Made by a program: the position numbers and the translations under genes. 64,000 nucleotides of DNA from Candidatus Roizmanbacteria bacterium (GTDB lineage: Bacteria; Patescibacteriota; Microgenomatia; UBA1406), in the NCBI GenBank assembly GCA_024654535.1, contig JANLHL010000038.1, positions 169,581-233,580 on the forward strand, read 5' to 3'. Positions 6,146 to 51,410 of this stretch are shown piece by piece. Numbering within the stretch: position 1 is the first letter of the stretch; each line of letters begins with the position of its first letter. The notes beneath the pieces are model-generated. The model did no database searches, was not told the DNA's origin, and saw nothing but the letters and a program-made list of their open reading frames with translations.

Positions 6146-7669
6146 TCAACGATACTGTAATGAACTAAACACACTTTCCACAGGTATCTTTCTTTCTAAC
6201 TCAGATAGCTTAAATAATTCAACTGCGTATCCACCCGGATACACCTTTCTTTGTATAGGCACGTGTTCTATATGCAATATATTTTTGGTCCACCAACGGT
6301 TGTCCATAAGTGTTCTGTCGGGATAAGGTCCAATAATAATATATGTATATTTTTTTTTGATAAACGCCGAAGAATTTTTATCAAGATGTAGTTGTTGTTC
6401 GTAGAGCATTGTATACATAGGGATATAATTACTGATTTGATCGTCAGTGTTGATAAAATATCCAAACTGTTTTGCCGAATCCTGATAAATAGACTCTGCA
6501 TATTTTTTTTGAACTGCCCAGCGAGACAACTGAATACCATTACTCTGTACATAGTTGATTCCAGATATGAGATTGAAAATTATTCCAATAAACACAATTG
6601 TATAAAGTACTGAGCTTCTGTTTGCTATCTGTGCGATAAGTATTGCGCTCACTCCTGAGAATGCCCAGTAATAGTACCAATGTATGGCATTTCCAGATAA
6701 TATGAGCGCCACCCAAAAGACACTATAGAGGAAAAGGAATGTGCTGATAATGTTCAATGTTTTCTTATTTTTTTCTTTACGTGCCAATATATATAATATA
6801 ATTATTACTATAAATGAAAATATGTTCATTATTTTAGAGATAATGAAGAACATATCCTGAGGCGTTGCAATAAATAACCTATTTCCTTGCAGCATGGTGT
6901 ATAGATTATTCAGAACTGAAGAGAAATTGTTTGCATTTTTTTGATTTTCACTCAATGTGTGTATTAATGTTTGTATTTGCAAACCATTGTGTCTGACATC
7001 AAACATAATGAAGGTTGATATGGCAAGTAATAATAAAGGAAAGGTGAAAAGGTGGTTTATTTTCTTCGTTTTGAAAATTACTCGACAAACCAGTAAAAGG
7101 CTTGCGAGCATAATCGGTACTCCGAATACCATTTCGCTCTGTATCAAAATCCCTCCTATCCCCATAATCCCAACTAAATATATAAGGCGGGTAGTCCATA
7201 TATATGCAAGTAGTAAATAAAAATAGATTGGAAATAAAATAACTGCAACAAATGGATTAGTCGGAGAGTTTATAAAAAAGAGTATATGGGATGTAAGTAT
7301 AAACATACTTAGCAAACCTGTTTTTTCGTCAAAAAGTTTTTTACCTACATACCATAGACTTCCCAAGAATATCAAAAAAAGTAAAAGCCAAAAAAATGTA
7401 CTATATGCTGGATTACCATGACTAAAAATAAATACTGGTAGATTCAAGTATAGCCAAAAAGGTCCATGATATACTCCGTTAATCGCTGTCCTTGCTCCAA
7501 TAAGTGTTAAGTGATGATTTTTGACGATATCATTCATAAGTAAAAAATCTCGTGCTACGTCAATGTCAAAAATTACACCCGTTTTTATGGAATAGGATAT
7601 GACGACGAATAATAGTATTAAAAAAAAGATTTTTAATAGTAAAGATGGTTTTGTTTGTTTCTCTTTCAT
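6146..7669 (-). CDS. Large polytopic membrane protein, probable GT-C-type (ArnT/PMT-like) glycosyltransferase
   Basis: The 507-aa protein has about 12 hydrophobic segments, an acidic first loop (FDIDVARDF) and a soluble C-terminal domain. The assignment rests on architecture only. Confidence 0.4.
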   Translation of the reverse strand: MKEKQTKPSLLLKIFFLILLFVVISYSIKTGVIFDIDVARDFLLMNDIVKNHHLTLIGARTAINGVYHGPFWLYLNLPVFIFSHGNPAYSTFFWLLLFLIFLGSLWYVGKKLFDEKTGLLSMFILTSHILFFINSPTNPFVAVILFPIYFYLLLAYIWTTRLIYLVGIMGIGGILIQSEMVFGVPIMLASLLLVCRVIFKTKKINHLFTFPLLLLAISTFIMFDVRHNGLQIQTLIHTLSENQKNANNFSSVLNNLYTMLQGNRLFIATPQDMFFIISKIMNIFSFIVIIILYILARKEKNKKTLNIISTFLFLYSVFWVALILSGNAIHWYYYWAFSGVSAILIAQIANRSSVLYTIVFIGIIFNLISGINYVQSNGIQLSRWAVQKKYAESIYQDSAKQFGYFINTDDQISNYIPMYTMLYEQQLHLDKNSSAFIKKKYTYIIIGPYPDRTLMDNRWWTKNILHIEHVPIQRKVYPGGYAVELFKLSELERKIPVESVFSSLQYR

Positions 7670-7767
7670 AGTTGTAGTATAGGTGATTTTTTAACAAATA
7701 ATTATATATAAGTAATTTGATTAAAATAGTAATTTAGAGCGGGAACGCTTATTGTATAATACACACT

Positions 7768-9999
7768 ATGGATAAACAGTATGTACCGAAAGAGCATGAA
7801 GAGCGTCTATATGCTTTTTGGGAAAAAAATGGATTTACGCAAGCACCAACAAAGGGAAAACCGTACACAATCCTTATGCCCCCACCGAACGCAAATGCGT
7901 CACTTCACGCAGGGCATGGTATGTATGTGATCGATGATATTTTAACTCGTTATAAGCGTTTGCAAGGATTTAGTTCTGTGTGGATACCTGGTATGGATCA
8001 TGCTGGATTTGAAACACAGTATGTGTACGAAAAACACTTGGCCAAACAAAAAAAATCGCGAATGGATTTTGATAGAAAAACCTTGTACGATAACATTCAC
8101 ACATTTGTACAGGAAAATTCAGGGTTGATATACCAACAATTTAAAAAGCTTGGATTTTTAGCAGATTGGGAAAGGAGTGTCTTTACTCTTGATGATCACG
8201 TACTCGCTCGTGTATTTGAAACGTTTACGCGTATGGAAAAAGAGAACTTAGTCTATCGCGATGATTATATTGTGAACTATTGTACACACTGCGGAACTTC
8301 GCTCGCTGAGTTAGAAGTAAAACACGTAGACCGTATAGATCCGTTATATTATGTGCGCTACCTGTATCCTGACAAGAAGGAATATATTGTGGTAGCCACG
8401 GTACGACCTGAAACTATCTTTGTCGATACCCATTTGGCGGTGAACCCAAAAGATAAAAAGAATAAACACCTTATCGGTAAAAAAGTGCTTAACCCACTTA
8501 CTAACAAACAAATGGTGATACTTGCAGATTCGTTTGTTGATCCGGAATTTGGCACCGGAATAGTTAAGCTTACCCCAGCACATGATGTCAACGATTTTAA
8601 TGCAGCTAAAACGCACGCATTACCAATCATAAAGGCATTTGATCTACGAGGAAAGGCAACAGAATGTTCCGGTAAGTATGCTGGTATGAAAGTAAGACCT
8701 GCTCGGGAGGCAATAGCAAAAGACTTAATGGCACAGGGGATTATAGAGAAGGTAAACGCAGAATATTCACACGCTGTTTCCGTGTGTTATAAATGTGCTC
8801 GCGATCTTGAGCCGACAGTTATTCCCAATTGGTTTATACGAGTGAAAGATCTTAAACAGAAAGCTGCCCAAGCAGTAAAAGAAAATAAAGTTGAATTTTT
8901 TCCGAAAAAATATAAAAAACAGATACTTGCATGGTATGCAAAAATGCACGATTGGCCAATAAGTCGGCAAATTGCATGGGGTATTCGTATTCCCGTGTGG
9001 TATAGAGTAGAGAAAGACGCGGATAATATATTTGTGACATGGCTTGACGATCAAAAGCGCTTTATGCAGGGCACTGTTGATTCATTTCTGAAAAAGGGAA
9101 TTACTATTGAAACTATAGAAAAAGGTTTGCAAACGGTGAATGCAGAAATTGGGGAAAGAGCACCAACGTATGTAGTCTCGAGTGATAAACCGCACGATGG
9201 ACACGAATATTTGCCGGAGACAGATACTCTTGATACGTGGTTTTCTTCGGGACAGTGGCCATTGGTAACGCTTGAAGAGAGTGAATATGCGACTCGTTTT
9301 CCAACTAATATGCTGGGAACATTGTCTGACATACTCCCCTTTTGGGTATCCCGAATGATAATGTTTAGCTTATATATACGTGGAACAGTCCCGTTTCATC
9401 ATGTCTATTTATGGTCAATGGTTGCAGACGCAAAAGGGATGAAGATGAGCAAAAGCAAAGGGAATGTAGTGAATCCTATAGAGCTTGTAGATAAGTATGG
9501 CGCAGATGCGTTTCGCGCGTCACTCTTATTTGGTGTTTCTCAGGGAGGAAAGGTAATTTTGGCTGAAGATAAGGTACGTGCTATGCGTAATTTTGCAAAT
9601 AAGATATGGAATATGGGGAGGTTTATATCTCTATCTAAAAGTGAAAAAGTAAAAATGAAAAGTGAAAAATTGAATAGTAAGGATCAGAAAATTGTTGGGA
9701 AACTTAGGAAAGAAATAGAAAATCTTCGCATAAAATATCATAAATATATGGACGAATATAAACTTTCCCGCGCATTTGACGAGTTGTATGAATTTGCGTG
9801 GCATAGGCTAGCCGATGTCTATATAGAAGCATTGAAAGAGAGCCTAAAAAATGGTACTATAGAGGCACAAACGGAACTTGAAGTGGCGTATAGGGATACC
9901 CTTAAGATGCTTCACCCGTTCATACCATTTGTGACAGAGGCTGTGTATCAAGAGTTTTATGGAAAAAATACATCAATTATTAGTTCAAAAAACATATGA
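7768..9999 (+). CDS. valS: Valyl-tRNA synthetase, short form lacking the C-terminal coiled-coil region
   Basis: Motifs seen: [14 protein letters not shown] (HIGH region), the CP1 editing motifs TVRPETIF and [19 protein letters not shown], and KMSKSKGN. The protein ends shortly after [10 protein letters not shown]. Confidence 0.9.
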
Positions 10000-10148
10000 C
10001 ATATCGAGGCAATAAGACATCAAAAATCAAACGTGCCCGTACCCATGGTTTTAGGCAAAGAAATAGTTCTGCAAAAGGAAGACTCGTTTTGAAAAGAAGA
10101 CGCATGAAAGGCCGAAAGAGCTTAACAGTGAGTGTGACACATTCGTGA
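9996..10148 (+). CDS. rpmH: 50S ribosomal protein L34
   Basis: It is absent from the ORF track because it is under 60 aa. The product is [50 protein letters not shown], which matches the L34 pattern (KR.R.HGFR.R..T..GR.VL.RRR.KGR..LTV). Its ATG overlaps the valS stop (ATGA) and its TGA overlaps the era GTG start (GTGA). Confidence 0.85.
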
Positions 10149-11041: not shown

Positions 11042-11069
11042 TTGAACAGTAGGTATTGTGTGGTATACT
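11042..11069 (+). promoter_or_regulatory. Strong sigma70-type promoter with extended -10
   Basis: TTGAAC (11042-47), 16-nt spacer, TGgTATACT (11061-69); an ATG follows 6 nt later at 11076. Confidence 0.55.
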
Positions 11070-11075
11070 GCAGTC

Positions 11076-11144
11076 ATGGTACATAACATTACTAACTCAT
11101 TAAGCATCTATTATGCCCTGAGGGTTGGTAATGATATGGTATAA
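11076..11144 (+). CDS. Candidate leaderless 22-codon small ORF (MVHNITNSLSIYYALRVGNDMV), or alternatively the 5' part of a ~116-nt small RNA
   Basis: The ATG lies 6 nt after an extended -10, the same geometry as 15 bona fide genes in this window. A TAA stop is at 11142-44 and an intrinsic terminator follows 22 nt later. I recognised no homology. Confidence 0.3.
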   Translation: MVHNITNSLSIYYALRVGNDMV

Positions 11145-11165
11145 AACCAAAAAATAGACATTACT

Positions 11166-11192
11166 AACCCCGACTAGCGTCGGGGTTTTTTA
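11166..11192 (+). terminator. Rho-independent terminator T1
   Basis: aaCCCCGAC-tagc-GTCGGGGtt followed by TTTTTT. Confidence 0.7.
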
Positions 11193-11249
11193 TTGCAAAA
11201 AATGTGTATAAAAAAACATAACAGAACAACCTATTATTACTATTTACTC

Positions 11250-11317
11250 TTTGGGGAGGAAGGCTATTATATGCCATAAATTTGAATTTAACTTTGACAA
11301 ATTTACACCTCCCCAAA
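11250..11317 (+). promoter_or_regulatory. Putative antiterminator helix / structured leader upstream of the GNAT-like/M20 operon
   Basis: tttGGGGAGG (11250-59) is the exact reverse complement of CCTCCCCaaa (11308-17), which overlaps the 5' arm of terminator T2. The enclosed segment has an AU hairpin, aaatttg (11278-84) with caaattt (11298-304). It also carries GGAGGAAGG followed by the mini-ORF ATG CCA TAA (11271-79). Confidence 0.35.
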
Positions 11318-11331
11318 CGGGGAGGTTTTTT
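11308..11331 (+). terminator. Rho-independent terminator T2, immediately upstream of the 11350 gene
   Basis: CCTCCCC-aaac-GGGGAGG followed by TTTTTT; it ends 19 nt before ATG 11350. Confidence 0.7.
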
Positions 11332-11349
11332 ATTAATTAATTATTAACT

Positions 11350-12384
11350 ATGAACATTGAAACAATTGAACAAAAAATTGGTGAACGAGAGCAGAGGATA
11401 CGTGATTTATCAATAACAGTCATTGAGCCTGAACAAAGTATAGGTCCAGAAATACAAGCTCAGTGGATGATTGATTTATTATCTAAAATATATGTCAATC
11501 ATGGAGTAACTCAAAATCCTCAAGGGGTAATTGATGCTATTGTGTCGGGCGACATGAGATGTTGGTTTGCGCTCGATGTAGATAACAGTCCAGTGAGTGT
11601 CGCAGCACTCATTGCTCAAAGGGACGGTGCGGTCGAGTTGGGTAGGGCTGTTGCGCTCCAGACGAACCAGGGAGTAGGAGGATTACTTATGTTAACAGCT
11701 GCACTCGATCATATTCAACATTCAGAACAACCGCTCGTGGCTGAAGTTCGAATGGCCGATGAATTTCATGGCGTGCACTCCTCGCATTCAACGCAAGTTA
11801 TAAGTTTCGGACACATCGGTCTTCATCCCCACGCGCTTGTGCCCGCTTTTCATCATGGTGAACCAAATAGGCAAGAACCTTTTGCATTCAGTTCTTCAAG
11901 GAAAATACTTGATCCTGAAAAAGCTTTTTTGGCTGATCCAACTGCACAGGTATGGCAAGCTACGCTTGGACTCATGCAGGAGTTTGCTCCGTCTATACAA
12001 GTTGAGATGTGTGAATCGGGTTCACTTGAGCATGGGTGGACAATTGTGCAAGAAAAGCCATTCGTCGTCGTTGTCCCTGAAAGAAGTACAACTACGAATC
12101 TAGATACAACGTTGCAAAGGGCAGATAATCTTGATGCGTTTACGCTGATACCCATAAGCCTTTCGTCAGAGATGGCAGGTGCTGTGAATGAATGTTTACG
12201 GCTAGGGCTTGTGCCTTGTGGTATAGATAGAAGCCTTGATGAGAATGGTCACCCACAGCTACTCATGGGAAGGTTAAGGCAAGGTACAATGCTCGCACCG
12301 ATGGTACAAGTTCCCAATGCACTGTCTCAAGCTCAATCTAGCGCTTTACGAGCAATTGATCAACAGTTTAGAAAGCAGATATGA
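11350..12384 (+). CDS. Hypothetical protein with two GNAT-like (acyl-CoA N-acyltransferase fold) halves; function unknown
   Basis: The N-half has AVELGRAVALQTNQGVGGLLMLTAAL, which resembles GNAT motif A, followed by ...FGHIGLHPHALVPAF. The C-half ends LRLGLVPCGIDRSLDENGHPQLLMGRL, the same (L)G(F/L)-x-P-x-G tail pattern. It is a real ORF of 344 aa, but the family call is tentative. Confidence 0.45.
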   Translation: MNIETIEQKIGEREQRIRDLSITVIEPEQSIGPEIQAQWMIDLLSKIYVNHGVTQNPQGVIDAIVSGDMRCWFALDVDNSPVSVAALIAQRDGAVELGRAVALQTNQGVGGLLMLTAALDHIQHSEQPLVAEVRMADEFHGVHSSHSTQVISFGHIGLHPHALVPAFHHGEPNRQEPFAFSSSRKILDPEKAFLADPTAQVWQATLGLMQEFAPSIQVEMCESGSLEHGWTIVQEKPFVVVVPERSTTTNLDTTLQRADNLDAFTLIPISLSSEMAGAVNECLRLGLVPCGIDRSLDENGHPQLLMGRLRQGTMLAPMVQVPNALSQAQSSALRAIDQQFRKQI

Positions 12385-14343: not shown

Positions 14344-14352
14344 TGTTATAAT
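14344..14352 (+). promoter_or_regulatory. Extended -10 element
   Basis: TGtTATAAT ends 5 nt before ATG 14358. Confidence 0.5.
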
Positions 14353-14357
14353 CATGT

Positions 14358-15113
14358 ATGGAGTCTGAATTACATTGGAGGCAAAAGGTAGCGGACCAAA
14401 TAAAAGATGCTTGGAGAAGAGAAAAACAAGGTTGGCAAGGGCCTGAAAGTGATTCTTATAATACGACTCGGAGAGGTCTAGACTATATTCATGCATTAGG
14501 AGGCATATCGGCAACGGCTAAGTATGTGGATACTTCATTTGCAGGTATGCCTATTTTAGATATAGGTGCTGGATCGACTATTGGGATTGCAGAATTGCAA
14601 GAGTGTTTTTTCCCGACACATACGGCATGGGGAACAGTATTATCGAGACCACAACAGCCATTAAATAATTTCTCCACTCTTCCGTCCGATCGTGTCGTTT
14701 TCACACCCGCAGAAACGCTCAGCGGTTTATATAGAGAATTTATTGGTTCACAGCCGAATTTTGCATTAGTTACCGGCGTCATGTCAATTGTTTATAGCAG
14801 AGCACCTGAGCAGTGTATACGTGCGATAAGTAAGATACTACCAGATGGTGGGATAGTTAAACTTTGTCTGTCAAACTCATATTGGGGTGATAATAACACT
14901 ATGCTTTGTGCTATGGACTTTTATGCTAAATTTATAGTTGCTGGTTATGGAACTTCATATTTACGAAATCTTCGCTGTGGTGATAGCATAGTTGACGTAG
15001 TACTTGCTGTAAAAGGGAGAGATAAAAGCTTCGCAATAAACATGATAAATAATGACCTGTGGAGTAGAAAGAATGATGCAATTAAAATGGAGAAATTCTA
15101 TACATCAAGTTAA
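14358..15113 (+). CDS. Hypothetical protein, possible class I SAM-dependent methyltransferase fold
   Basis: ILDIGAGSTIG resembles motif I, and later ALVTGVMSIVY and ILPDGGIVKL resemble motifs II and III. The rest is unrecognised. Confidence 0.4.
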   Translation: MESELHWRQKVADQIKDAWRREKQGWQGPESDSYNTTRRGLDYIHALGGISATAKYVDTSFAGMPILDIGAGSTIGIAELQECFFPTHTAWGTVLSRPQQPLNNFSTLPSDRVVFTPAETLSGLYREFIGSQPNFALVTGVMSIVYSRAPEQCIRAISKILPDGGIVKLCLSNSYWGDNNTMLCAMDFYAKFIVAGYGTSYLRNLRCGDSIVDVVLAVKGRDKSFAINMINNDLWSRKNDAIKMEKFYTSS

Positions 15114-16516
15114 CAAAAAGCCTTTATTCTTGTAGAACACACATCTTTTCCCAATAATTCCATAGATTCGTTTAAGGGTGGAGAGATTTTTTTACCGGTT
15201 ACTGCGACACGAAGCATCATAAAAAACGCACTATTTGATAAGCCATGTTTTTGAGCAATCTTTTCCATATGAGTGCCAATAGACGTTGCATTCCACGTGT
15301 TTACCTTGTCAATCTCGTTTGTAACATCTTTTAATACTTCTTTTTTATCGGTAAGATTTACTTCATAACTGTCTGGTTTTTGAAAAAAGAAAGAACAGAG
15401 TGTCCAATAATCTGAAAGTTTTTTTATTCGTTCACGAATAAGAGGGATAGTTTTTTCAACAAGAATTGGATCAACTTCTCTCTTGTTATATTTCTTTTCG
15501 TATTCAACGATTTTTATCGTTACCTTTTCGGTTTTCAATGTGCGAATATACATCCCATTCATCCATTCAAGCTTTGTGACATCAAAGACAGGGCCAACTG
15601 GTTGCAAATCCTTCAGTTCGAAAACCTGTATAAATTCTTCTAAAGAAAAGATTTCTTTCTGTTGTGGGTGGCTCCAACCCATAAGTGCAAAATAGTTTAG
15701 AACTGTTTCTGGCAAATAGCCCTGTGCTAAGTACCATGAGGCCCATACTGGATTTTTACGTTTAGAAAGCTTGCTCTTGTCTGGATTTCTCAAAATTGGT
15801 GAATGGGCAAATATGGGCAGTTCCCATCCAAACGCTTTATATAAAATCACATGTTTCGGTGTTGAGGAAAGCCATTCTTCACCACGAATTATATGCGTAA
15901 TTTTCATAAGATGGTCATCAATTACCACCGCTAAGTGATAGGTAGGATAACCATCGGATTTTAATAGTACTTGGTCATCAAGAATATTATTTTGTATGGT
16001 AATTGATCCTCGAATAACGTCCGTAATAGTTGTTTCACCTTCTGGTACACGTAAGCGCACTACATAGGGAATTTTGTTGTTTAATTTTTCGGCTATTTCT
16101 CTTTCCGTTAACGAAAGACAGTGTCTATCATATTTTGGTTGCTTTTTTTCTTTTTGCTGCTGTTCACGAAGTATGGATAATCTTTCTTGGGTGCAAAAAC
16201 AATAATAGGCATGTTTATTTGCGAGTAATTCCTTTGTATATTCATGATATATATTGAGTCGTTCGGACTGACGGTACGGTGCATATGGTCCACCATTGCG
16301 AGTCCCCTCGTCAGGAGTGAGGCCAAACGAATCGAGGCTGTTTAAGATATTTTTTTCCGAACCTTCAACTAATCGTGTTCTATCAGTATCTTCTATACGT
16401 ACAATAAATTGTCCGTTATTTTTGCGTGCCCATACCCAGTTGATTAAAGCAGTATATAAGTTCCCTATGTGTAAATCTGACCCAGTTGGAGATGGTGCAA
16501 TGCGTGTTCGAACCAT
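15110..16516 (-). CDS. gltX: Glutamyl-tRNA synthetase
   Basis: Motifs seen: RIAPSPTGSDLHIGN (HIGH region) and KLSKRK (KMSKS). I start at ATG 16516 (MVRTRIAPSP), which is 6 nt after TATACT (16528..16523). The ORF-track start at 16534 is an upstream TTG. Confidence 0.9.
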   Translation of the reverse strand: MVRTRIAPSPTGSDLHIGNLYTALINWVWARKNNGQFIVRIEDTDRTRLVEGSEKNILNSLDSFGLTPDEGTRNGGPYAPYRQSERLNIYHEYTKELLANKHAYYCFCTQERLSILREQQQKEKKQPKYDRHCLSLTEREIAEKLNNKIPYVVRLRVPEGETTITDVIRGSITIQNNILDDQVLLKSDGYPTYHLAVVIDDHLMKITHIIRGEEWLSSTPKHVILYKAFGWELPIFAHSPILRNPDKSKLSKRKNPVWASWYLAQGYLPETVLNYFALMGWSHPQQKEIFSLEEFIQVFELKDLQPVGPVFDVTKLEWMNGMYIRTLKTEKVTIKIVEYEKKYNKREVDPILVEKTIPLIRERIKKLSDYWTLCSFFFQKPDSYEVNLTDKKEVLKDVTNEIDKVNTWNATSIGTHMEKIAQKHGLSNSAFFMMLRVAVTGKKISPPLNESMELLGKDVCSTRIKAFC

Positions 16517-16546
16517 GTGCCAAGTATATACCAAAGTTAATGGAGT

Positions 16547-16555
16547 TGCTATACT
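16547..16555 (+). promoter_or_regulatory. Extended -10 element, divergent from the gltX -10 box
   Basis: TGcTATACT ends 6 nt before ATG 16562. Confidence 0.5.
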
Positions 16556-16561
16556 GTTACA

Positions 16562-17656
16562 ATGACACTGTCAGAGCTTTCATATAATGTTCGCACGTAT
16601 GGAAAAGTGGCTGGTATTTTTTTTGTTTTCGTCATTATTTTTTATGCAGTCATAGTATTGGTTCTTTCATCAACAGGTAAAAACTCAAATGTACCTGAGG
16701 CGAATGGTTTGAATCCAAAATTTGGCTCAATTCAGAAAGTAGTCTTTGAAGAACCCTTACAGACTGAAAAGCTTTCTTTTGTGCTAGATACCATTGATGG
16801 AGCGTACCCGAGTGCCACATCAAGTGCCTCTGTTTATTATGTGAAGTTACCGGATATTACTTTGGTTTATCTTAAACGCGTAGAACAAATCGCAAAAAAC
16901 TTTGGCTTTGATGTTGAAAAAACACCCTATACGCGCATAGATGATGCGTGGGTAAAATATGAGAGTGACATGGCAGTTCTCAACATAAATACCCGTACAT
17001 TCCATTATTTTTTTACTCTAAAACCAGCGAATAAGCTCCAAGAACTTTTATCTGCAAGTTCTTCTGCAGACATAGCTACTGCACAAGATACGCTCACCAA
17101 TAGGGCAACAAGCGCATTATCGAGTCAGGATTCTTATCCAGAAAATATAGCGACTGGTAAGAAAAATATGGTGTATTTACGATATGATTATGCGACACTT
17201 AGCTGGGTCCCTGCGCCGGATAGTGAAGTTCCTCAAGCTGTACGAATAGATTATTTCAGACAGGATGCTCAATTACCATTTGTTTCGCCCCGATTTTTTT
17301 CAAGTCAGAACTATGTCATTTTAGCTCCTGTAGGTCCAGAGGGTGAAACAGCTGAGATGTCGTATAAAAATTTTACTACTATAGACGATGGCGGATCTTT
17401 CTATCCACTGATTTCTCCAACTGATGCTTGGAAGAGATTAGAGGAGGGAAAGGTAACGACAGTTTTTTTAGCTCCAGAGCATACTCTTCCCATAAAAATA
17501 CGTGATTTTTATCTTGCATACTACGATCCAGAGAGCTATCAAGAGTATATTCAACCCATCTTTGTTTTTCTCGGTAGTGATAACTATGTTGGGTATACTC
17601 CTGCGGTTAAAGACGAATATTTGCTTGATAATACAACTCAAAGCCCAACTCCATAG
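16562..17656 (+). CDS. Hypothetical N-terminally anchored extracytoplasmic protein (364 aa)
   Basis: It has a single N-terminal TM (VAGIFFVFVIIFYAVIVLVLSS) and a soluble remainder. I recognised no family. Confidence 0.5.
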   Translation: MTLSELSYNVRTYGKVAGIFFVFVIIFYAVIVLVLSSTGKNSNVPEANGLNPKFGSIQKVVFEEPLQTEKLSFVLDTIDGAYPSATSSASVYYVKLPDITLVYLKRVEQIAKNFGFDVEKTPYTRIDDAWVKYESDMAVLNINTRTFHYFFTLKPANKLQELLSASSSADIATAQDTLTNRATSALSSQDSYPENIATGKKNMVYLRYDYATLSWVPAPDSEVPQAVRIDYFRQDAQLPFVSPRFFSSQNYVILAPVGPEGETAEMSYKNFTTIDDGGSFYPLISPTDAWKRLEEGKVTTVFLAPEHTLPIKIRDFYLAYYDPESYQEYIQPIFVFLGSDNYVGYTPAVKDEYLLDNTTQSPTP

Positions 17657-18642: not shown

Positions 18643-20038
18643 CTACTATGCGAATGCCTAATTCAGCTAACTGTTCTGCTGTGACTTCGCTTGGTGCATT
18701 CATAACGGCTGTTTTCCCACTCGCCGAAGTTGGGAATGGGACTACTTCACGTACCGATGGTTCACCTAAAAGTGCCATAAGAGCTCTATCTATTCCCGGT
18801 GCTATTCCACCATGTGGTGGGACTCCGTACGTAAATGCGTTTAACATGTGAGAAAATTCTTGTTTTTGTTTTTTAGAAAATCCGATGAGATCGAATATTT
18901 TTTGTTGTATATCTGGTTTATGTATACGAATACTTCCACCCCCTATTTCGAAACCGTTTAACACAAGGTCATGTTGGAGTCCACGAACCTTAAGTGGGTC
19001 AGTATCAAGAAGATCTATATCGTCTGGGTGTGGGGATGTAAACATATGATGTGATGGTGCAAACGTAGCACGACCTGAGCCATGAAAAAAATCTTCTTGT
19101 GATTGCTTTGTAAAAAGTGGAAAGTCAACCGTCCAACAAAAAGCTAGTTCGTTTGGATCTTTCTTATTTTTGCGCAAGTCTGGCTTATCAGTTCCATATT
19201 TTTTGAGTGCTTCTGCGTGGGGGATTCGTGGCCACGGTGATTGCATTATGTTTTTTTCTGGGAACAATTTTTTAACAATTGAGGTAAACATATCTTCGAC
19301 AAGTTCCAAGATATCGTTTTGCTCGACAAATGACATTTCCATATCTAGTTGGGTGAATTCACCGTATGCTCTATCCGATCTCTGCGCTTCATCGCGGAAA
19401 CATCGGGCTATTTGGAAATATCGTTCGAAACCGGCAACCATCAGAAGTTGTTTATACTGTTGTGGCGATTGTGGAAGTGCATAGAATTTACCTTTTTGTA
19501 AACGAGAAGGAATTATAAAATCTCGGGCTCCTTCCGGGGTACTCTTCGTGAGAATGGGGGTATCTATCTCTGTAAAGTTTTTTTGTACAAGATATGAACG
19601 GATTTCTTGTACAAAACTAGAGCGCAACAGTATGTTTCTCTGCATTCGTTGTCGACGCAAATCTAAGTAACGATACTCCAAACGTATATCTTCACCAATA
19701 TCGTAGCCACTTGTCTCTAGTGGAAATGGTGGTGTTTGTGAGTGTGAAATTATTTCAGATTTTTCGGCTTGTACCTCAACAGTACCGGTTTTTATTTTTT
19801 TATTAATAAGGTGTTCAGGTCGTGGAGCAACAGTGCCTACGATATGAACAACGTCTTCTGGAGAAAATGTAGGATGTGTACCATCGGGAGGTACAACAAC
19901 TTGTACGATGCCTGTGTGATCGCGCAAATCTAAAAATGTAATTTTTCCATGAGCTCGTATACTATATACCCACCCATATAAATCTATTTTCTTACCAACT
20001 TCTTTAGGAATATCTTGAAAAAATATTTTTTTGCTCAT
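18635..20038 (-). CDS. aspS: Aspartyl-tRNA synthetase, bacterial-type core without the GAD insertion domain
   Basis: It has an N-terminal OB fold, motif 2 FRDEAQRSDRAYGEFTQLDMEMSF and motif 3 GGIAPGIDR. DKPDLRKNKKDPNELAFCWTVDFPLF joins directly where E. coli AspRS carries about 130 extra residues. Confidence 0.9.
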   Translation of the reverse strand: MSKKIFFQDIPKEVGKKIDLYGWVYSIRAHGKITFLDLRDHTGIVQVVVPPDGTHPTFSPEDVVHIVGTVAPRPEHLINKKIKTGTVEVQAEKSEIISHSQTPPFPLETSGYDIGEDIRLEYRYLDLRRQRMQRNILLRSSFVQEIRSYLVQKNFTEIDTPILTKSTPEGARDFIIPSRLQKGKFYALPQSPQQYKQLLMVAGFERYFQIARCFRDEAQRSDRAYGEFTQLDMEMSFVEQNDILELVEDMFTSIVKKLFPEKNIMQSPWPRIPHAEALKKYGTDKPDLRKNKKDPNELAFCWTVDFPLFTKQSQEDFFHGSGRATFAPSHHMFTSPHPDDIDLLDTDPLKVRGLQHDLVLNGFEIGGGSIRIHKPDIQQKIFDLIGFSKKQKQEFSHMLNAFTYGVPPHGGIAPGIDRALMALLGEPSVREVVPFPTSASGKTAVMNAPSEVTAEQLAELGIRIVDE

Positions 20039-22170
20039 CTGTTTACTTTAAATAGATATGTCTCACCATTGTGATACGCTATACGTCCTATTGTATAAAA
20101 CTTTTTCACGTTTAGCGAGGGAAATTTTTCACGCTCAAACTGTGAAATGAGTATATAGCGCACAGTATACTTGTGCAGAATCTGTTTTGTTTTTTCGCTG
20201 GTAGGATTAGTATACACTTCCAATACCTCAGCAGCACGTGGTGCAACGATTGAACTGTAATCTCCACGCCACAGCCACTCATGTACACCCCATCCAACGA
20301 TAGTAGGAATACCTGTATTTGCAGAAACCATATTATAATCCGTGTATGAATCCCCGTTTGCTTCTAAAATACTATAGGGGAGTTTTTCTTTTGCATCGTT
20401 CTTTTTCAGAAAGTCGATAACACCCTTCATTTGAGGATAATCTTTTTGAATCCAGCTAGATCCATCTAACGTTGTAAAATGCTTGAGGTCACCGTAAAAA
20501 GAATGTATAGCAAAATATCCGTATACACTGACAAAAAGAGCGCAGATTATAAGTAGACTTGCATATAATAGTGTAAACGTGGAAATTTTTTCCTTTGTAT
20601 ACCGTATAAACCGTACCATAAGTGGAATGCCAAAAATAGTCATCATTATGTAAGCTTGATACCCGAGCTTGAACATAGTATTAGCTCTGAAATGAGCGGG
20701 ATAAATATCTTTAAAATATATAAACTCAGCTGTTAATGTGAGTAAGAGAGAGTAGGTAAATATAAAGAAAATAAAGTATGACGTGTCTTCAGATACCAGT
20801 ATTTTTTTCCGTGTAAATATGAGAGTCAAAAATCCTGCAAAAATAAACCAGAAAAATCCCCATAGAATAAACAACATCCAGAATGGACTCGATTGACATT
20901 TGTCTGCTTCACCAAGAAATATACCAAGCTTGCCCATATGTATAAGCCACTGTGGAGCACAGTTGATACCAATTGCGGATACAAAAGAATTAAATACTGA
21001 GGAAAAAGGATAGGTAAGAAGCACGGCGAAGCCAATAGTAGGAATAAAATGCATCAAAACCGTACCAATATTCTTATATCCTACAGCGTAGAGAAAGAAT
21101 AAGAAACCACCGTATACTAAAAGATCTGTGGCATTTGTCATGTAGGCTATTGAGAGTAAATAGGCAAAAAATATTTCGACAATAATTCGAAATCGTTTAT
21201 GTGGTGTATATATAAACGCAATAAATAGCCCAATGATCAGGAGCACGATCGGTATGTTTAAAACATGGCCATGTAGGTCTGCAACGACGTGTGAATATGT
21301 GGGGAATTCGTGAATCGTAAATGGAATATACCTGGTCGCATTGGGATACCAGTACGCTATTGGATTATAGTGCGAAAGAATTTTCCAAAATGGAATTGGT
21401 GTACCTGGCGGATAGCCTTTTGTGAAAAGATATATCGTATGTAGATTGCCACCAAAATTTAGAAAAAATGTAGTAAGTATGCCAGTATAGATAGCTATAT
21501 ACTTTTTTGTTTTCGTGAAAAAGAACGAATATACATGATAACCGAGTGAAAATGAACTCGTTATTGAAAGTGCAAAGACAGTCGCTAACATTAGATTAAA
21601 ACTAATATTAGGTACGATTCCGGTAAGTTTCGATACGAGTGCGGTTATATAGTGCCCAAAGTAATAGTAGTTTACAAAAAAAGCTCCGTGATTGGTCGTT
21701 TGTGCATACCACATGTCTTGGGGTGGTAAACTCGTACTGCGAAATGCACTATAGATGAAACCAAGATCCATAAATTTTTCTAAAGACCGCAGAGATGGTT
21801 CATTTCCTCGGACATAACTCCAAAATGCTAGTGCTATAAAAAAAACAATCTCATAGAGAATTATAGTTTTTAGTGACGGTAGTTTTATAGTACTTTTTTG
21901 ATACACAAATATACTCCAGTTTATGAGAGCTATGCTCGTAAGACATAAAGTAATAGTAGTTAGTGAGAAAGATAGGTGTGCATACCGAGCTAATAAAAAA
22001 ACTATGTATGAAAGAATACTAACACCGAGAGTTTTTGCAAACGGATATCCTTTATCATCAAATTTACGGAACAGATAGCTTGTTATTGGCAATACGCTCA
22101 GGCCAACGGCAGTATAAGCGCCATACCAAAGAGCAATTTGTGGTAACCAAGCAAAGAAATTTCCAATCAT
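20035..22170 (-). CDS. Large polytopic membrane protein of the DUF2298 / YYY-motif family (putative glycosyltransferase-like)
   Basis: It has about 20 hydrophobic segments and the hallmark FFVNYYYFGHY motif. I start at the second ATG (22170, MIGNFFAW), which lies 7 nt after TATAAT (22183..22178). Confidence 0.65.
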   Translation of the reverse strand: MIGNFFAWLPQIALWYGAYTAVGLSVLPITSYLFRKFDDKGYPFAKTLGVSILSYIVFLLARYAHLSFSLTTITLCLTSIALINWSIFVYQKSTIKLPSLKTIILYEIVFFIALAFWSYVRGNEPSLRSLEKFMDLGFIYSAFRSTSLPPQDMWYAQTTNHGAFFVNYYYFGHYITALVSKLTGIVPNISFNLMLATVFALSITSSFSLGYHVYSFFFTKTKKYIAIYTGILTTFFLNFGGNLHTIYLFTKGYPPGTPIPFWKILSHYNPIAYWYPNATRYIPFTIHEFPTYSHVVADLHGHVLNIPIVLLIIGLFIAFIYTPHKRFRIIVEIFFAYLLSIAYMTNATDLLVYGGFLFFLYAVGYKNIGTVLMHFIPTIGFAVLLTYPFSSVFNSFVSAIGINCAPQWLIHMGKLGIFLGEADKCQSSPFWMLFILWGFFWFIFAGFLTLIFTRKKILVSEDTSYFIFFIFTYSLLLTLTAEFIYFKDIYPAHFRANTMFKLGYQAYIMMTIFGIPLMVRFIRYTKEKISTFTLLYASLLIICALFVSVYGYFAIHSFYGDLKHFTTLDGSSWIQKDYPQMKGVIDFLKKNDAKEKLPYSILEANGDSYTDYNMVSANTGIPTIVGWGVHEWLWRGDYSSIVAPRAAEVLEVYTNPTSEKTKQILHKYTVRYILISQFEREKFPSLNVKKFYTIGRIAYHNGETYLFKVNR

Positions 22171-35632: not shown

Positions 35633-35634
35633 TC

Positions 35635-35874
35635 CTACTTTAGCGGATCGAACCCTCCTTTTGACCACGGATTACAGCGGAGTATACGCAGTGTTCCCTT
35701 GTACATCCCTTTCAATGCTCCATATTTTTGTACGGCGTCAATTGAATATTGGGAACACGTCGGCTGGAATCTGCAGCTTTCAGAAGGAAGGCCAAGTACT
35801 TTTAACAAAGTCCTCATTGGCGTACTAGCCCACACGTAAATGTGTATGAGCCATATGATGACACGCTTTATCAT
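35635..35874 (-). CDS. yidD: Membrane protein insertion efficiency factor YidD
   Basis: [44 protein letters not shown] is the canonical YidD signature. Confidence 0.85.
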
Positions 35875-37190: not shown

Positions 37191-37866
37191 GGAAAATATT
37201 ACTTTCTGGCACAGATTTTTGTGCAAGATACTGTTTTAAGCTTTCAACTATTGTGGGTCGGGCGCAAACATAGTATTCGAATGACTGTGGTGAATTATGC
37301 AAGAAAATATCATTGAGGGCGTCTTGTATATAGCCCTTGCTGCAATGGTCGCGTACATCTCCTTTTGAAAGGCAAAAGGTGTAGTCAAAACCCTTCATGC
37401 GACCAAGTTTTTTCCAGATATCTGTGTAGTACGCTTGTTCAAAAGTACGCGTTCCCCATAAAAGGATTCGCTTCTGTGGACTACGCATCTCGTGCATAAA
37501 CTCAAGCATTGATTTCATTGGCGCAATACCACTTCCTGTAGCTAAAAATAGTTTCGGAAGATTTGATTCGTGCAGCACAAAAACGCCAAGTGGTGCCCGA
37601 AAATGTATATGATCACCCAATGCAAGATTCATGAGATATTGAGAACCAATACCCATTGGAGTAGTATCTATGAGTAGTTCAAATTTTTTGTTAAATTGTG
37701 GACTAGATGCAATAGAATACTGGCGAAATCCATTTCCGACTTCAAGCAAAATGTATTGTCCTGACTTAAACTCAAGCGTATCGTCTACGAGATCAAACCA
37801 AAGCTGCAGCACATTAGGGGCGAGCACATTTTTTTCGGTAAGAGTAGCTGTATAGTGTTTGAGCAT
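37174..37866 (-). CDS. Ferredoxin-NADP(+) reductase-like FAD/NAD(P)-binding oxidoreductase
   Basis: It has RQYSIAS (the RxYS FAD motif), GDHIHFRAPLG and LATGSGIAPM (NAD(P) motif). No Fe-S cysteine cluster was seen. Confidence 0.7.
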   Translation of the reverse strand: MLKHYTATLTEKNVLAPNVLQLWFDLVDDTLEFKSGQYILLEVGNGFRQYSIASSPQFNKKFELLIDTTPMGIGSQYLMNLALGDHIHFRAPLGVFVLHESNLPKLFLATGSGIAPMKSMLEFMHEMRSPQKRILLWGTRTFEQAYYTDIWKKLGRMKGFDYTFCLSKGDVRDHCSKGYIQDALNDIFLHNSPQSFEYYVCARPTIVESLKQYLAQKSVPESNIFHEKFT

Positions 37867-37872
37867 GTGTAC

Positions 37873-37881
37873 AGTATAGCA
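37873..37881 (-). promoter_or_regulatory. Extended -10 element
   Basis: On the minus strand, TGcTATACT ends 6 nt before ATG 37866. Confidence 0.5.
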
Positions 37882-37972
37882 AACACCCCTTACGTGGGGT
37901 TGTATACGTGCTCATGGCTGAGAAGGTGAGGAACCGTCATACCATATCATACTTCTTTTCTTTTTTGCCACA

Positions 37973-37981
37973 TGATATACT
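37973..37981 (+). promoter_or_regulatory. Extended -10 element
   Basis: TGaTATACT ends 7 nt before ATG 37989. Confidence 0.5.
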
Positions 37982-37988
37982 TCAAAGT

Positions 37989-38774
37989 ATGAAGCCTCTG
38001 CTGTCCGTAGCTCTAGCAGTGCATAATGAAGAAAAAAACATCCATCGATGTCTTACGTCCCTTTATGGCTGGGTCGATGAGATTGTCATAGTAGATGGTA
38101 AATCTACAGACTTGACAGTAGCTCTTGCGCGAAGGTTTGGAAAAAAAGTACGTATATTTCACGAAGAGAATCCCCCAATGTTTCATAAGAATAAGGAAAA
38201 GGCACTGAAAAAAGCGATCGGTGAATGGATTCTGCAGCTTGATGCGGACGAAATCGTCTCACCAGCTTTAAAAAAAGAAATTCTCAGCAAAATAAAACAG
38301 AGAAAAGTCGGCGCATATTCCATACCTCGTTTAAACTATTTTTTGGGTACCGCACTCAAAAAAGGAGGACAATATCCAGACTATACTATACGTTTATATA
38401 GGAATGGTGCCGCACATTTTGCTTGTAAGAGCATTCACGAACAGGTAACACTTAGTAAAGATACACAAATAGGGTGTATATCCCAGCCCTTATTACACTA
38501 TCCATATGAATCTTTTTCTTCCTACTTGCATAAATGGGAGCATTATTGTACTTTGGAAGCATCGACTTTATACAAACAGAAGGTTGTCCCCACGTTCACA
38601 TTGGGATTAACGTATTTTATAGTTAAGCCGATTGGGTGGTTTTTTTCAACGTATCTGCGACACCTTGGGTTTTTAGATGGGTTTGCTGGTTTTGTGTTCA
38701 GTGCATTTTCTGCACTACGATTTTGGATAATTTATATACAGTTATATGAAAAATATGGCTCCAATACAGCTTAA
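37989..38774 (+). CDS. Family 2 glycosyltransferase
   Basis: Motifs seen: LSVALAVHNEEKNI, EIVIVDGKSTD and LQLDADE (DxD). A C-terminal hydrophobic segment is present. The start is taken at 37989 rather than the ORF-track 37908. Confidence 0.8.
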   Translation: MKPLLSVALAVHNEEKNIHRCLTSLYGWVDEIVIVDGKSTDLTVALARRFGKKVRIFHEENPPMFHKNKEKALKKAIGEWILQLDADEIVSPALKKEILSKIKQRKVGAYSIPRLNYFLGTALKKGGQYPDYTIRLYRNGAAHFACKSIHEQVTLSKDTQIGCISQPLLHYPYESFSSYLHKWEHYCTLEASTLYKQKVVPTFTLGLTYFIVKPIGWFFSTYLRHLGFLDGFAGFVFSAFSALRFWIIYIQLYEKYGSNTA

Positions 38775-43140: not shown

Positions 43141-43169
43141 TTGCAAAATGTATTATCAATCGATATAAT
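43141..43169 (+). promoter_or_regulatory. Near-consensus sigma70 promoter of rpsO-pnp
   Basis: TTGCAA (43141-46), 17-nt spacer, TATAAT (43164-69); ATG 43176 lies 6 nt downstream. Confidence 0.6.
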
Positions 43170-43175
43170 GCGTAG

Positions 43176-43604
43176 ATGGCAACAAAGAAAGTAGCAGAAA
43201 AAAAACCGGTCGAAAAGAAAAAAGCCCCCGTACGAGAAAAATCAAAGGCTTTGATTATGAAGAAATCCACCGTTAAGAAGGCAGAAGAACCAAAAAAAGC
43301 CGATATTCAGAATACTGCTCCAACTGGAGAAGACAAGCAAAAGATTATTACTCTTTTTTCAACGAAGCAAGGCGATACAGGTTCACCAGAAGTACAAGTG
43401 GCTATTTTGACATGGAAGGTCTTAAAGCTTCAGGAACATTTGGGACAAAATCCAAAGGATAATCATTCGAGACGAGGTTTATTAAAAATAATATCCAAAA
43501 GACGCAGAATATTAAATTATATAAAGAGCCAAGAAGTAAAGAGATACGATGAAGTGTCTAAAAAAATAGCAGACTTCCAGGCAAGCTATAGCACGTCAGC
43601 ATGA
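43176..43604 (+). CDS. rpsO: 30S ribosomal protein S15 with ~52-aa lysine-rich N-terminal extension
   Basis: The core GDTGSPEVQVAILTWKVLKLQEHL...DNHSRRGLLKIISKRRRILNY is canonical S15. It is preceded by MATKKVAEKKPVEKKKAPVREKSKALIMKKSTVKKAEEPKK. Confidence 0.85.
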   Translation: MATKKVAEKKPVEKKKAPVREKSKALIMKKSTVKKAEEPKKADIQNTAPTGEDKQKIITLFSTKQGDTGSPEVQVAILTWKVLKLQEHLGQNPKDNHSRRGLLKIISKRRRILNYIKSQEVKRYDEVSKKIADFQASYSTSA

Positions 43605-45709: not shown

Positions 45710-46963
45710 CGATAAAAAAGGGATTTCGCACTCAACTCTCGTTCCTCCACCATGGTGTCCAAGAAACTTCATTTCAAACGTGTCCTTTTTGTACCACCAT
45801 ACTGCAAATCCATCGTAGGGCAAAATAACCACATTACCAACGCGGTCTAGAAATCGCTGAGAAGGCGTCTCTTCACTAAAGAAACCATGTTTTATCAAAG
45901 CATTTGTTTCGTACACTTCTGCTTTTCCCTTTAGGTCTTTCTGAAGCATAGAAACAACCTGCTTTACATATTCGCTTTTTATATATAAAAACATATCACG
46001 AGCAGATCCAGCTGGTACTAAAGGCATATTATCGATACCACGTTTTAGATACTGTTCAAAATCTGGATATTTTTTATTGATATAGAGTGTTTCGTTTGGA
46101 CTCACGTTTGCCATACCGTGATCTGCGGATAGTAAAATCATAGTATCGGTGAGACTCTCAATGTGTTTAAAAAGCAAATCCTCAAGCATCGTAAAGGTAT
46201 TATGAATTTCAGCCATGCGTTCTGGTGAATCGGGACCATTTATGTGGCCAGCCGTGTCGACAGGGTCATGATAGAGGAAAAAATAGGATGGGTCATGCGC
46301 CTCGTTCATAGCTGAAGAAAGGAGTGTGAGTGCATGGGGGAAACTACGATATTGGTGGAGTGTTGCACCAGTGAATGTGACATCTGTGTACGGCGATGGA
46401 GCATACTCTTTGTACTGAAACACGTGCGATGCAACACCTTTTTTTGTCAGACGTTCATAGATTGATTCAAATGGAAAAGCGTCATGTGGTTTAATTACCC
46501 CATTCAGTGTTTCGCGTCCTTTGTCTCCTGCATAGGAATATAGCAGTGGTGCAATGATGCGACCTACTAAAGGTTCATAGTAAAACCATTCGTGTATTCC
46601 ACTTTGTCCGGGTTCGAGCCCGGTGTGAATAGTCGTTACATGAGCTGCTGTCGTAGAAGGGAACTGGCTTGTTAGTTTCGATACGACCCCTTTTTCTAAG
46701 AAACGTTTTAAGAATGGATACTTATTTTTGTACTTGTCCCACCATTTCCAACCAAAACTGTCGATAAAGAGGAATAGTACTTTTTTTACTGCACCATGTT
46801 TTGGCAAAACGTCGAGTGGTAAATGCTTATTCTCTTGCTGTGTAAGTAAGTATTCTATGGTAGCTGGAATGCGAGAAAAACAGTAATTACTGTAGAGAGG
46901 CTTCATAAAATGCGTACTAAATGTTGAATCTGCGACGGTTTGTATAGAACGCTTATTTATCAT
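45698..46963 (-). CDS. Alkaline-phosphatase-superfamily enzyme (type I phosphodiesterase/nucleotide pyrophosphatase-like)
   Basis: Motifs seen: LFLFIDSFGW (metal Asp), SQFPSTTAAHVTTIHTG (nucleophile Thr region), HDPVDTAGH and LLSADHGM. I start at ATG 46963 (MINKRS), 7 nt after TATACT; the ORF-track start is 47008. Confidence 0.7.
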   Translation of the reverse strand: MINKRSIQTVADSTFSTHFMKPLYSNYCFSRIPATIEYLLTQQENKHLPLDVLPKHGAVKKVLFLFIDSFGWKWWDKYKNKYPFLKRFLEKGVVSKLTSQFPSTTAAHVTTIHTGLEPGQSGIHEWFYYEPLVGRIIAPLLYSYAGDKGRETLNGVIKPHDAFPFESIYERLTKKGVASHVFQYKEYAPSPYTDVTFTGATLHQYRSFPHALTLLSSAMNEAHDPSYFFLYHDPVDTAGHINGPDSPERMAEIHNTFTMLEDLLFKHIESLTDTMILLSADHGMANVSPNETLYINKKYPDFEQYLKRGIDNMPLVPAGSARDMFLYIKSEYVKQVVSMLQKDLKGKAEVYETNALIKHGFFSEETPSQRFLDRVGNVVILPYDGFAVWWYKKDTFEMKFLGHHGGGTRVECEIPFLSLAL

Positions 46964-47098
46964 GTGTACAAGTATACAAATTATAAGTAGTTTATGTAGA
47001 TAATACATATTATTTATGTTTGTTTTTACAAAGTATCAATGGTACAATACATTATTAAAAAATATCCTATAGTTAGATAAATTATATATCAATCATTT

Positions 47099-51102: not shown

Positions 51103-51115
51103 CTATCTTTTTTAT

Positions 51116-51144
51116 TTGACATTAGAGCCCAAAAATTGCAATAT
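51116..51144 (+). promoter_or_regulatory. Sigma70-type promoter
   Basis: TTGACA (51116-21), 17-nt spacer, CAATAT (51139-44); ATG 51153 lies 8 nt downstream. Confidence 0.5.
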
Positions 51145-51152
51145 ATAAGAGT

Positions 51153-51410
51153 ATGAATCTTGAATCAATACAAATAATTCTTATTACGGCGTTAGTTATC
51201 GGTACAGTACTTATGACTGTTATAGGCATTCAGCTTATTTTGATTTTGCGTGAAACGCGTCAAATGGTCACCCGTGCTAATAATGTTGCTGCTGGAGCAC
51301 AAAAAATTAGTTTATTTTTAGAGCGTTCTACCAACAGCGTTCAAGGGTTTTTAGAGGGTATGGGAGTGGTCGGTAAACTAGTACAAACGTTTACGAAAAA
51401 GAAGACATGA
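51153..51410 (+). CDS. Small N-terminally anchored protein (DUF948-like)
   Basis: The 85-aa protein has one TM (IILITALVIGTVLMTVIGIQLILIL) and then a helical tail. Confidence 0.45.
   Translation: MNLESIQIILITALVIGTVLMTVIGIQLILILRETRQMVTRANNVAAGAQKISLFLERSTNSVQGFLEGMGVVGKLVQTFTKKKT

Follow-up and report, generated by a model that had tools for sequence, protein, structure and literature searches.

We analysed a 64,000-nt stretch of genomic DNA from a Candidatus Roizmanbacteria bacterium (GenBank assembly GCA_024654535.1, contig JANLHL010000038.1, positions 169,581 to 233,580 of the forward strand), which is called the window throughout. At about 19–21 of its roughly 30 transcription unit heads (about 60% to two thirds), a hexamer resembling a bacterial −10 promoter box ends 5–9 nt before the start codon. 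The genes concerned are probably transcribed into leaderless mRNAs, which would begin at the box-adjacent ATG and be translated without the use of Shine-Dalgarno (SD) pairing. This reading builds on four observations, namely the geometry of the boxes, the statistics of their placement, their conservation, and the absence of an SD signal. From these we infer that transcription starts at the A of the ATG, that initiation is of the 70S type, and that operon-internal genes are translated by a coupling mechanism. In the proposed mechanism, a sigma-70-type promoter with a TATAAT-like box, often TGn-extended and usually with a weak −35 element, would serve about two thirds of the transcription units. 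RNA polymerase would start at or within 1–2 nt of the start codon to give mRNA without a 5′ leader, and the ribosome with initiator tRNA would bind the 5′-terminal AUG directly. Most other unit heads have a box 9–15 nt from the start, which would leave a leader too short for an SD interaction. For operon-internal genes, which are AT-rich upstream, translation would presumably depend on re-initiation after termination or else on SD-independent entry. The first-pass annotation of the window had proposed such leaderless, SD-free expression, and all tests run support this proposal, as they point to promoters abutting the start codon and to no use of SD sites. Judged by sequence, the predicted trait is common to Roizmanbacteria-like genomes and many unlabelled metagenomic relatives.

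The G+C content of the window is 39%. It is regarded as chromosomal because of its housekeeping genes, which include valS, gltX, era, asnS/aspS, ftsH, ftsK, a clpC-like gene, suf genes, rpsO-pnp, and rpoB-rpoC-rpsL-rpsG-fusA. The best matches of its GltX protein were Roizmanbacteria metagenome-assembled genomes (MAGs) at about 60% identity. As a single marker, GltX gave 56–62% identity to Candidatus Roizmanbacteria MAGs, 50% to Candidatus Microgenomatus, and at most 47% to matches outside the Candidate Phyla Radiation (CPR). A taxonomy look-up listed Roizmanbacteria as members of the Microgenomates group of Patescibacteria/CPR. An exact-match search for the RpsG of the window in public assemblies had no hit. 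We assign the window to the chromosome of a Microgenomates bacterium near Roizmanbacteria.

The first-pass annotation had listed 16 gene heads with a box close to the ATG. When the sequence was read back, every box, spacing, and ATG was found as described, and the three −35 boxes with 17-bp spacers (at 31889, 43176, and 51153) were also correct. The sites were scored with a −10 matrix trained on relatives only, never on the window. TATACT (7676–7681; site 7667–7681, −) is 6 nt from ATG 7669 of a PMT_2-like membrane protein gene (score 3.7, top 0.9%), and TATAAT (7755–7760; site 7755–7770, +) is 7 nt from ATG 7768 of valS (score 9.0). TTGAAC-16-TGgTATACT (11042–11078, +) lies 6 nt before ATG 11076 of a 22-codon open reading frame (ORF), which is followed by a terminator at 11166–11193. 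At 14344–14360 (+), TGtTATAAT (score 6.9) stands 5 nt before ATG 14358 of a methyltransferase-like gene. The divergent gltX and a hypothetical gene are preceded by TATACT (16514–16528, −; 6 nt to ATG 16516) and TGcTATACT (16547–16564, +; 6 nt to ATG 16562), respectively, and the two ATGs are 45 bp apart. Further on, TATAAT (22168–22183, −) is 7 nt from ATG 22170 of a DUF2298 gene, where ATG 22179 of the ORF track overlaps the box, TGtTATACT (22239–22256, +) is 6 nt from ATG 22254 of nfeD, and TGtTATTAT (23634–23651, +) is 6 nt from ATG 23649 of a gene for a hypothetical protein of 675 aa. The best score in the window (9.5) was obtained for TTTACA-17-TGaTACAAT (26430–26469, +), 8 nt from ATG 26467 of a class A penicillin-binding protein (PBP) gene. 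A ClpC-like ATPase gene, referred to as clp-like, has TTGACA-17-CATAAT (31854–31891, +) 6 nt before ATG 31889. TGcTATACT (37864–37881, −) is 6 nt from ATG 37866 of an FNR-like reductase gene, TGaTATACT (37973–37991, +) is 7 nt from ATG 37989 of a GT2 gene, and TTGCAA-17-TATAAT (43141–43178, +) is 6 nt from ATG 43176 of rpsO. The last two are TATACT (46961–46976, −; score 7.5), 7 nt from ATG 46963 of a phosphodiesterase/AP family gene, and TTGACA-17-CAATAT (51116–51155, +; weak box, score 0.9), 8 nt from ATG 51153 of an 85-codon ORF for which no family match was found.

The motif (TGn)TAnnnT, which had been claimed for all 16 sites, is present at 14 of them. It is missing at 31889 (CATAAT) and 51153 (CAATAT), and these two were accepted mainly because a perfect TTGACA lies 17 bp upstream. 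The list itself was right but overlooked four sites. They are CGGTATAAT (6100–6114, −; score 7.4), 6 nt from ATG 6102 of a Sua5-TsaE fusion gene; TATACT (1248–1263, +), 7 nt from ATG 1261 of an epimerase gene and within the 3′ end of the upstream ORF; TACAAT (5020–5033, −), 5 nt from ATG 5022 of tsaD, which begins 3 nt past the upstream stop; and TACACT (62455–62469, −), 6 nt from ATG 62457 of a DUF192 gene, with the N-terminus MKRR.

By matrix score, 12 of the 16 rank within the top 0.15% of 128,000 window positions (P ~5e-22, allowing six spacings per site). The extended TGn element was found at 8 of the 16, versus about 5% expected (P = 6e-7). Because the first-pass annotation had moved several start codons, a start-blind test was run, which took the first ATG in each ORF of 100 codons or more. 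In the window (N = 59), TAnnnT occurred 10 times at spacing 6 versus 2.0 expected per position further upstream (P = 5e-5), and a cruder, motif-first count in the window alone gave P = 0.008. In 12 Roizmanbacteria-like loci (213 kb), there were 47 occurrences at spacing 6 versus 7.2 expected (P = 5e-23), and spacings 7 and 8 were also raised. A further 77 metagenomic loci (1.05 Mb), independent of these, were retrieved via the class A PBP at 41–52% identity and yielded 116, 89, and 56 occurrences at spacings 6, 7, and 8 versus about 25 expected (P = 2e-39 for spacing 6). The peak was absent from loci of Ignavibacteria/Bacteroidota (35% GC), Clostridia, Rhizobia, and Chloroflexi. The enrichment of −10-like hexamers near starts, for which a genome-wide check had been suggested earlier, was seen as a sharp peak at spacing 6 in both the window and the relatives. 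In the relatives, 49% of the unit heads carry a box. The profiles of the relatives and of the metagenome set show a shoulder at spacings 8–14, which matches the short-leader boxes described below. Strong −10 boxes were also found 5–8 nt before 18–40% of genes in L026, L039, L048, L079, and other CPR loci (Shapirobacteria, Falkowbacteria, and unclassified Patescibacteria), and the SD signal was absent from the loci of these groups as well. The leaderless trait may extend beyond Roizmanbacteria.

SD 4-mers at spacing 4–14 were found at 3 of the 48 window genes and at 10 of 187 genes in the relatives, which equals the background further upstream. The corresponding values were 54% in the Clostridia loci and 31% in the Rhizobia loci. 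The mean anti-SD pairing at starts was −0.82 kcal/mol in the window versus −1.44 kcal/mol in control stretches, and −0.71 in the relatives (controls −1.4 to −1.8), compared with −6.4 versus −1.8 in Clostridia. In the metagenome set it was −2.05 at starts and −1.87 in the control. The statement that no GGAGG-like tract occurs upstream of kbl, rpoC, rpsG, fusA, pnp, and sufB proved accurate. On the assumption of a canonical anti-SD sequence, no gene class shows SD pairing. Upstream of the unboxed genes, AT-rich words were the sole finding, and no alternative purine-rich motif was detected. None of the 159 loci retrieved contained the conserved 16S motifs. The rpsL gene has a GTG start at 58915 (+), 35 nt past the rpoC stop. 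Neither an SD site nor a box at 5–8 nt precedes this start, and we regard it as an example of predicted SD-independent internal initiation.

By their composition, the hexamers look like sigma-70-type −10 boxes. Among 99 sites, the commonest were TATAAT (24), TATACT (16), TACAAT (11), and TAAAAT (10); TGn preceded 18 of the 99 versus a background of 5.4%, and a faint TTGA was seen exactly 17 bp upstream. At 205 independent sites, TGn was present in 28%, compared with 9% for control hexamers located further upstream (P = 6e-11). TATAAT was matched at five or more of its six positions in 62% of the sites versus 29% of the controls (P = 1.5e-17). A clear −35 element was visible at the individual sites 31889, 51153, 43176, 26467, and 30655. 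The spacing-6 excess is tied to ATG (41 versus 5.8), and GTG and TTG starts gave a flat profile with no such excess. Both results were obtained with an untrained rule, by which ATG-specificity was judged since the trained-matrix version is partly circular. The peak was present before divergent genes and at same-strand gaps of at least 15 nt, and was weak at overlaps or gaps below 15 nt. The E. coli RNA polymerase prefers to start 7–8 bp after the −10 box, at a Y-R-Y start element (PMC12641261). With a spacing of 6–7 nt, the A of the ATG is the 7th–8th base after the box, and Y-A-T fits Y-R-Y. The median spacer of divergent gene pairs is 82 bp in the window, where none exceeds 140 bp, and 70 bp in the relatives, versus 229 bp in Ignavibacteria and 271 bp in Clostridia, and the smallest in the window is the 45-bp spacer of gltX/16562. 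Two back-to-back core promoters fit into such short spacers only where transcription begins at the ATGs or immediately beside them.

These data bear on a rival view, in which TAnnnT would not be a promoter element but an AT-rich signal for the non-SD translation of leadered mRNAs, comparable to that of Bacteroidota (GeneMarkS-2 group B). The absence of SD, the AT-rich upstream regions of all genes, and the occurrence of the hexamer at 37% of genes with same-strand gaps below 40 nt would be explained by it. Against it, the hexamer has a −10 consensus with TGn enrichment, some sites show a perfect TTGACA at 17 bp, and the motif is scarce at tightly coupled genes and keeps a fixed distance to ATG. 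In addition, the Ignavibacteria/Bacteroidota-like loci of the same GC lack the peak, and divergent spacers of 45–135 bp are too small for other promoters plus leaders. We consider this explanation improbable.

The conservation of the boxes was examined with two metagenomic contigs, L081 and L082, which align collinearly, at about 80% nucleotide identity, with positions 26425–38760 and 23211–29118 of the window, respectively. The blocks from −42 to −1 were 85–89% identical, versus 57–59% at third codon positions, 91–92% at codon positions 1 and 2, and 18–56% in other intergenic DNA. Indels of 5–26 nt were located just outside these blocks, and none was found between box and ATG. At the PBP gene, the block from −35 to ATG was 90–95% identical in L081 and L082, and the −10 box with its 8-nt spacer was identical in the three genomes. 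At the clp-like gene, TTGACA-17-CATAAT-6-ATG is retained and the −42 to −1 block is 98% identical to that of L081. The block at GT2 is 100% conserved. The upstream block of 23649 is conserved in L082, where the box reads TATCAT, and at 30655 the box is conserved in L081 while the spacer varies. Synteny of L001–L012 with the window is limited to gltX, era, and three other genes, and the other starts were checked with L081 and L082. In the gltX orthologues of L001–L012 (about 60% protein identity), a TATAAT-like box was kept 6–9 nt (mostly 6–8 nt) before the ATG in all cases. The spacer sequence differs between them, and the box-adjacent ATG opens the conserved N-terminus MVRTRIAPSP.

In a mixed model, the box-adjacent promoters would be secondary, and most expression would come from read-through or upstream promoters that produce leadered mRNAs translated independently of SD. 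Some boxes do lie within upstream genes (1261, 5022, and 37190), many strong −10 matches occur inside coding sequence, and no nearby −10 box was found at era, at gene 11350, or at rpsL with its GTG start. Against it, purifying selection on the −42 to −1 blocks and on the exact spacing speaks for the importance of these promoters, and divergent pairs offer no other promoter site. The model has, in our estimation, little chance of being correct. The era gene, which starts with GTG at 10145 (+) and lacks a nearby box in the window, was also compared in six relatives (L001, L002, L004, L005, L006, and L012). The box is 6–7 nt before the ATG in four of the six and at 10 nt in one. This difference suggests that, from one relative to another, individual genes gain and lose the leaderless state.

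The choice of start codons is the subject of a third alternative, in which the promoters are real, the true start codons lie further downstream, and the apparent N-termini are untranslated parts of ordinary leaders. It could account for N-termini without a family match, such as about 50 aa in rpsO and about 125 aa before the first domain of the ClpC-like protein, and the starts of 23649 and 46963 are settled by no comparison. Elsewhere the family matches begin close to the box-adjacent ATG, namely at residue 1 in gltX, 4 in the epimerase at 1261, 6 in GT2, 14 in valS (Pfam tRNA-synt_1), and 21 in Sua5, and the next in-frame start codons would truncate these domains; in valS, the next in-frame ATG is codon 37. 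Furthermore, the N-termini of orthologues align from the box-adjacent ATG, and coding-type divergence starts directly after the ATG in the PBP and clp-like genes. We judge this alternative a shade less probable than the two preceding ones. There is hardly any case for the last one, that the pattern arose by chance or composition and was boosted by picking fitting start codons, since the eight starts shifted in the first-pass annotation, the frequency of TAnnnT in AT-rich spacers, and the modest P of the motif-first window count are outweighed by the start-blind tests, the matrix trained elsewhere, the two independent sets, the matched-GC controls, and the conservation.

For individual genes, the comparison supported most of the start codons that had been moved. 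The gltX start is fixed by the Pfam match from residue 1. The PBP start is placed at 26467, and ATG 26449 inside the promoter, because the promoter block is conserved and codons 2–5 diverge. At GT2, the upstream candidate starts 37908 and 37914 lie in a block with a frame-breaking 5-nt indel. The changes at gltX, PBP, GT2, and the clp-like gene therefore hold. For nfeD, start 22254 is favoured because the longer ORF from TTG 22035 would overlap the divergent gene. The changes at 23649 and at the AP family gene found no such backing in a comparison, and that reported for the YYY protein was no change, as it coincides with the ORF track already. Overall, there are nine window genes at which the longest-ORF track and the box-adjacent ATG disagree, namely the seven real changes together with 22170 and rpsL.

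Several unit heads had been set apart in the first-pass annotation as exceptions with leaders. This description stands for 47099, whose leader is about 44 nt, and longer leaders of this kind are rare. Most of the others have boxes near the start, at 9 nt in 30655, 10 nt in 3520, 12 nt in sufC, 13 nt in ftsH, 14 nt in ftsK, and about 15–17 nt in rpoB, and the implied leaders are only 2–9 nt. The nucleotidyl transferase gene at ATG 30655 has TTGCAA-16-TGgTATGAT (30618–30657, +), for which the leader is put at 0–3 nt. The ftsH gene (ATG 30534) is preceded by TGaTATAAT (30532–30556, −; score 9.4), with a leader of about 6 nt and no SD site. A gene for a pilin-like small protein (ATG 31822) has TATGAT at 9 nt (31820–31837, −). 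Internal genes are mostly located −8 to +4 nt relative to the upstream stop, a spacing that fits re-initiation after termination. One three-gene operon with a single, predicted leaderless head at 37866 (−) consists of the FNR-like gene, an M20 peptidase gene that overlaps it by 17 nt, and yidD (35635–35874), which has an ATGA overlap with the M20 gene.

The region of the 22-codon ORF has a more complex layout. The promoter at 11042–11069 (+) precedes the ORF (ATG 11076), which runs into an intrinsic terminator (11166–11187) with a T-run. A second terminator (11307–11326) with a T-run is located 18 nt before ATG 11350. The sequence GGGGAGG at 11254 repeats the 3′ arm of this second terminator and could act as an antiterminator. 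The Rfam search gave only sub-threshold leader matches in 11042–11350. Since the ORF runs into the terminator, it may represent a small RNA or a regulatory leader (attenuator) rather than a protein gene.

A number of points weigh against leaderless, SD-free expression as proposed here. The 11076 ORF may not encode a protein, and among the 16 boxes those at 31889 and 51153 are poor and that of 7669 is mediocre (3.7). The −35 element is weak in the independent set, where TTG at the right distance was found in 13% versus 9% with no enrichment of 4/6 matches. At the short-gap genes that carry the hexamer (37% of those with a same-strand gap below 40 nt), the promoters would often lie within upstream coding sequence. 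Fourteen of the 16 sites have a pyrimidine at −1, but this base is also common at unboxed genes and was for this reason dropped as a discriminator. The control lineages include no known leaderless lineage, genes in the relatives were called by a crude first-ATG rule, and the SD tests assume a canonical anti-SD sequence. Finally, extra upstream promoters may give leadered transcripts.

Haloarchaea such as Haloferax volcanii have mostly leaderless transcripts, do not use SD on leadered mRNAs, and place a TATA/BRE promoter about 26 nt upstream. With a leaderless majority and SD-independent initiation on the remainder, they are, on what is generally known of them, functionally closest to the arrangement proposed here, which differs in having a bacterial sigma-70-type −10 box 6–8 nt upstream. 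Bacteroidota (group B) share the lack of SD enrichment and the AT-rich sequence before starts, and they probably retain the anti-SD tail. Their mRNAs, however, are leadered and the motif precedes all genes, whereas in the window it is a promoter-type box that is ATG-specific and rare at coupled genes.

Group C of GeneMarkS-2 is defined by a TANNNT box 6–8 nt before the first genes in operons and is frequent in Actinobacteria and Deinococcus-Thermus (PMC6028130), which agrees with the earlier remark that leaderless initiation is known from Actinobacteria and Deinococcus. It also occurs in some Mycoplasma, and its members with the standard code are almost all high-GC (bioRxiv 10.1101/2022.07.25.500264). 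The position of the Pribnow box before first genes, 6–8 nt, is the same in the window, and the transcription units affected amount to 25–50% in group C and about 60% here. Three differences were noted. The internal and leadered genes of group C use SD-type sites, whereas no class shows SD pairing here; the window combines low GC with the standard code; and CPR/Microgenomates are not named in the text of the group C papers, supplementary genome lists apart. Within the CPR, Tsurumaki et al. (2022, PMC9297842) describe a subgroup of Parcubacteria whose 16S rRNA lacks the anti-SD motif, and they report the loss for this subgroup and not for Microgenomates. In the subgroup, SD-led initiation is thought not to operate (PMC9297842), which makes it comparable to the window. 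There the evidence is loss of the rRNA motif, with leaderless mRNAs unmentioned, and here it comes from the mRNA side of a Microgenomates genome. The only CPR start-site set found in the literature is an indirect RNA-seq inference for Nanosynbacter lyticus. No description of the leaderless layout for CPR/Microgenomates was found in the full texts searched, which include few subscription journals, so that an earlier description is possible. The layout would thus be a known mechanism in a lineage new for it, with an SD-free departure from group C.

We put forward tentatively, as a proposal with a somewhat less than even chance, that Microgenomates, and possibly much of the CPR, have abandoned SD–anti-SD pairing, with most units leaderless or near-leaderless and internal genes translated via coupling only. 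If this were true, these bacteria would be a counterpart of the haloarchaea, plausibly in connection with the reduced CPR ribosome, and there would be systematic start-codon errors in CPR annotations. That ribosome, in which uL30 and bL9 are missing and bS1 is short (PMC9297842), receives from the leaderless reading of the window a concrete hypothesis for how it initiates. The same reading adds a deep-branching, low-GC lineage to the debate on ancestral leaderless initiation. CPR genomes are annotated almost wholly by automatic callers, and a length- or SD-based choice of start would give many wrong N-termini. For expression in the few cultivable Patescibacteria, the design rule would be TGnTATAAT, six bases, and ATG.

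Some further features of the window and of one relative were recorded. At the Rfam gathering threshold, no RNA family match was obtained in the window, and seven relatives gave one 5S rRNA and two tRNAs and nothing else. In the relative L001, a 5S rRNA gene is located at 18901–19018 (−) with a tRNA nearby, but no 23S rRNA was detected within the neighbouring 2.4 kb. In this relative, the rRNA genes appear to be unlinked. In region 61928–63505 of the window, the DUF192 gene (−), which probably starts at 62457 or 62475, faces a FemAB-family gene (+) with 62477 as its probable start. The two start codons either overlap or are separated by no more than 20 bp. The identification of the ORF after fusA as tuf was rejected, as this ORF is the FemAB gene with the DUF192 gene opposite. 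The ClpC-like ATPase (31889–35632, +) has 1247 aa, and an insert of about 240 aa splits its second AAA domain, and the first Clp_N repeat is preceded by about 125 aa. Pfam gave no match to either the insert or the N-terminal stretch, and an intein domain was not detected. In the rpsO product (43176–43604, +), the S15 domain (aa 54–130) follows an N-terminal extension of about 50 residues that is rich in Lys, Ala, and Glu. The Sua5/TsaC and TsaE domains are fused in one ORF (5026–6102, −) directly upstream of tsaD (3967–5022, −), and the two genes form a compact t6A-synthesis pair.

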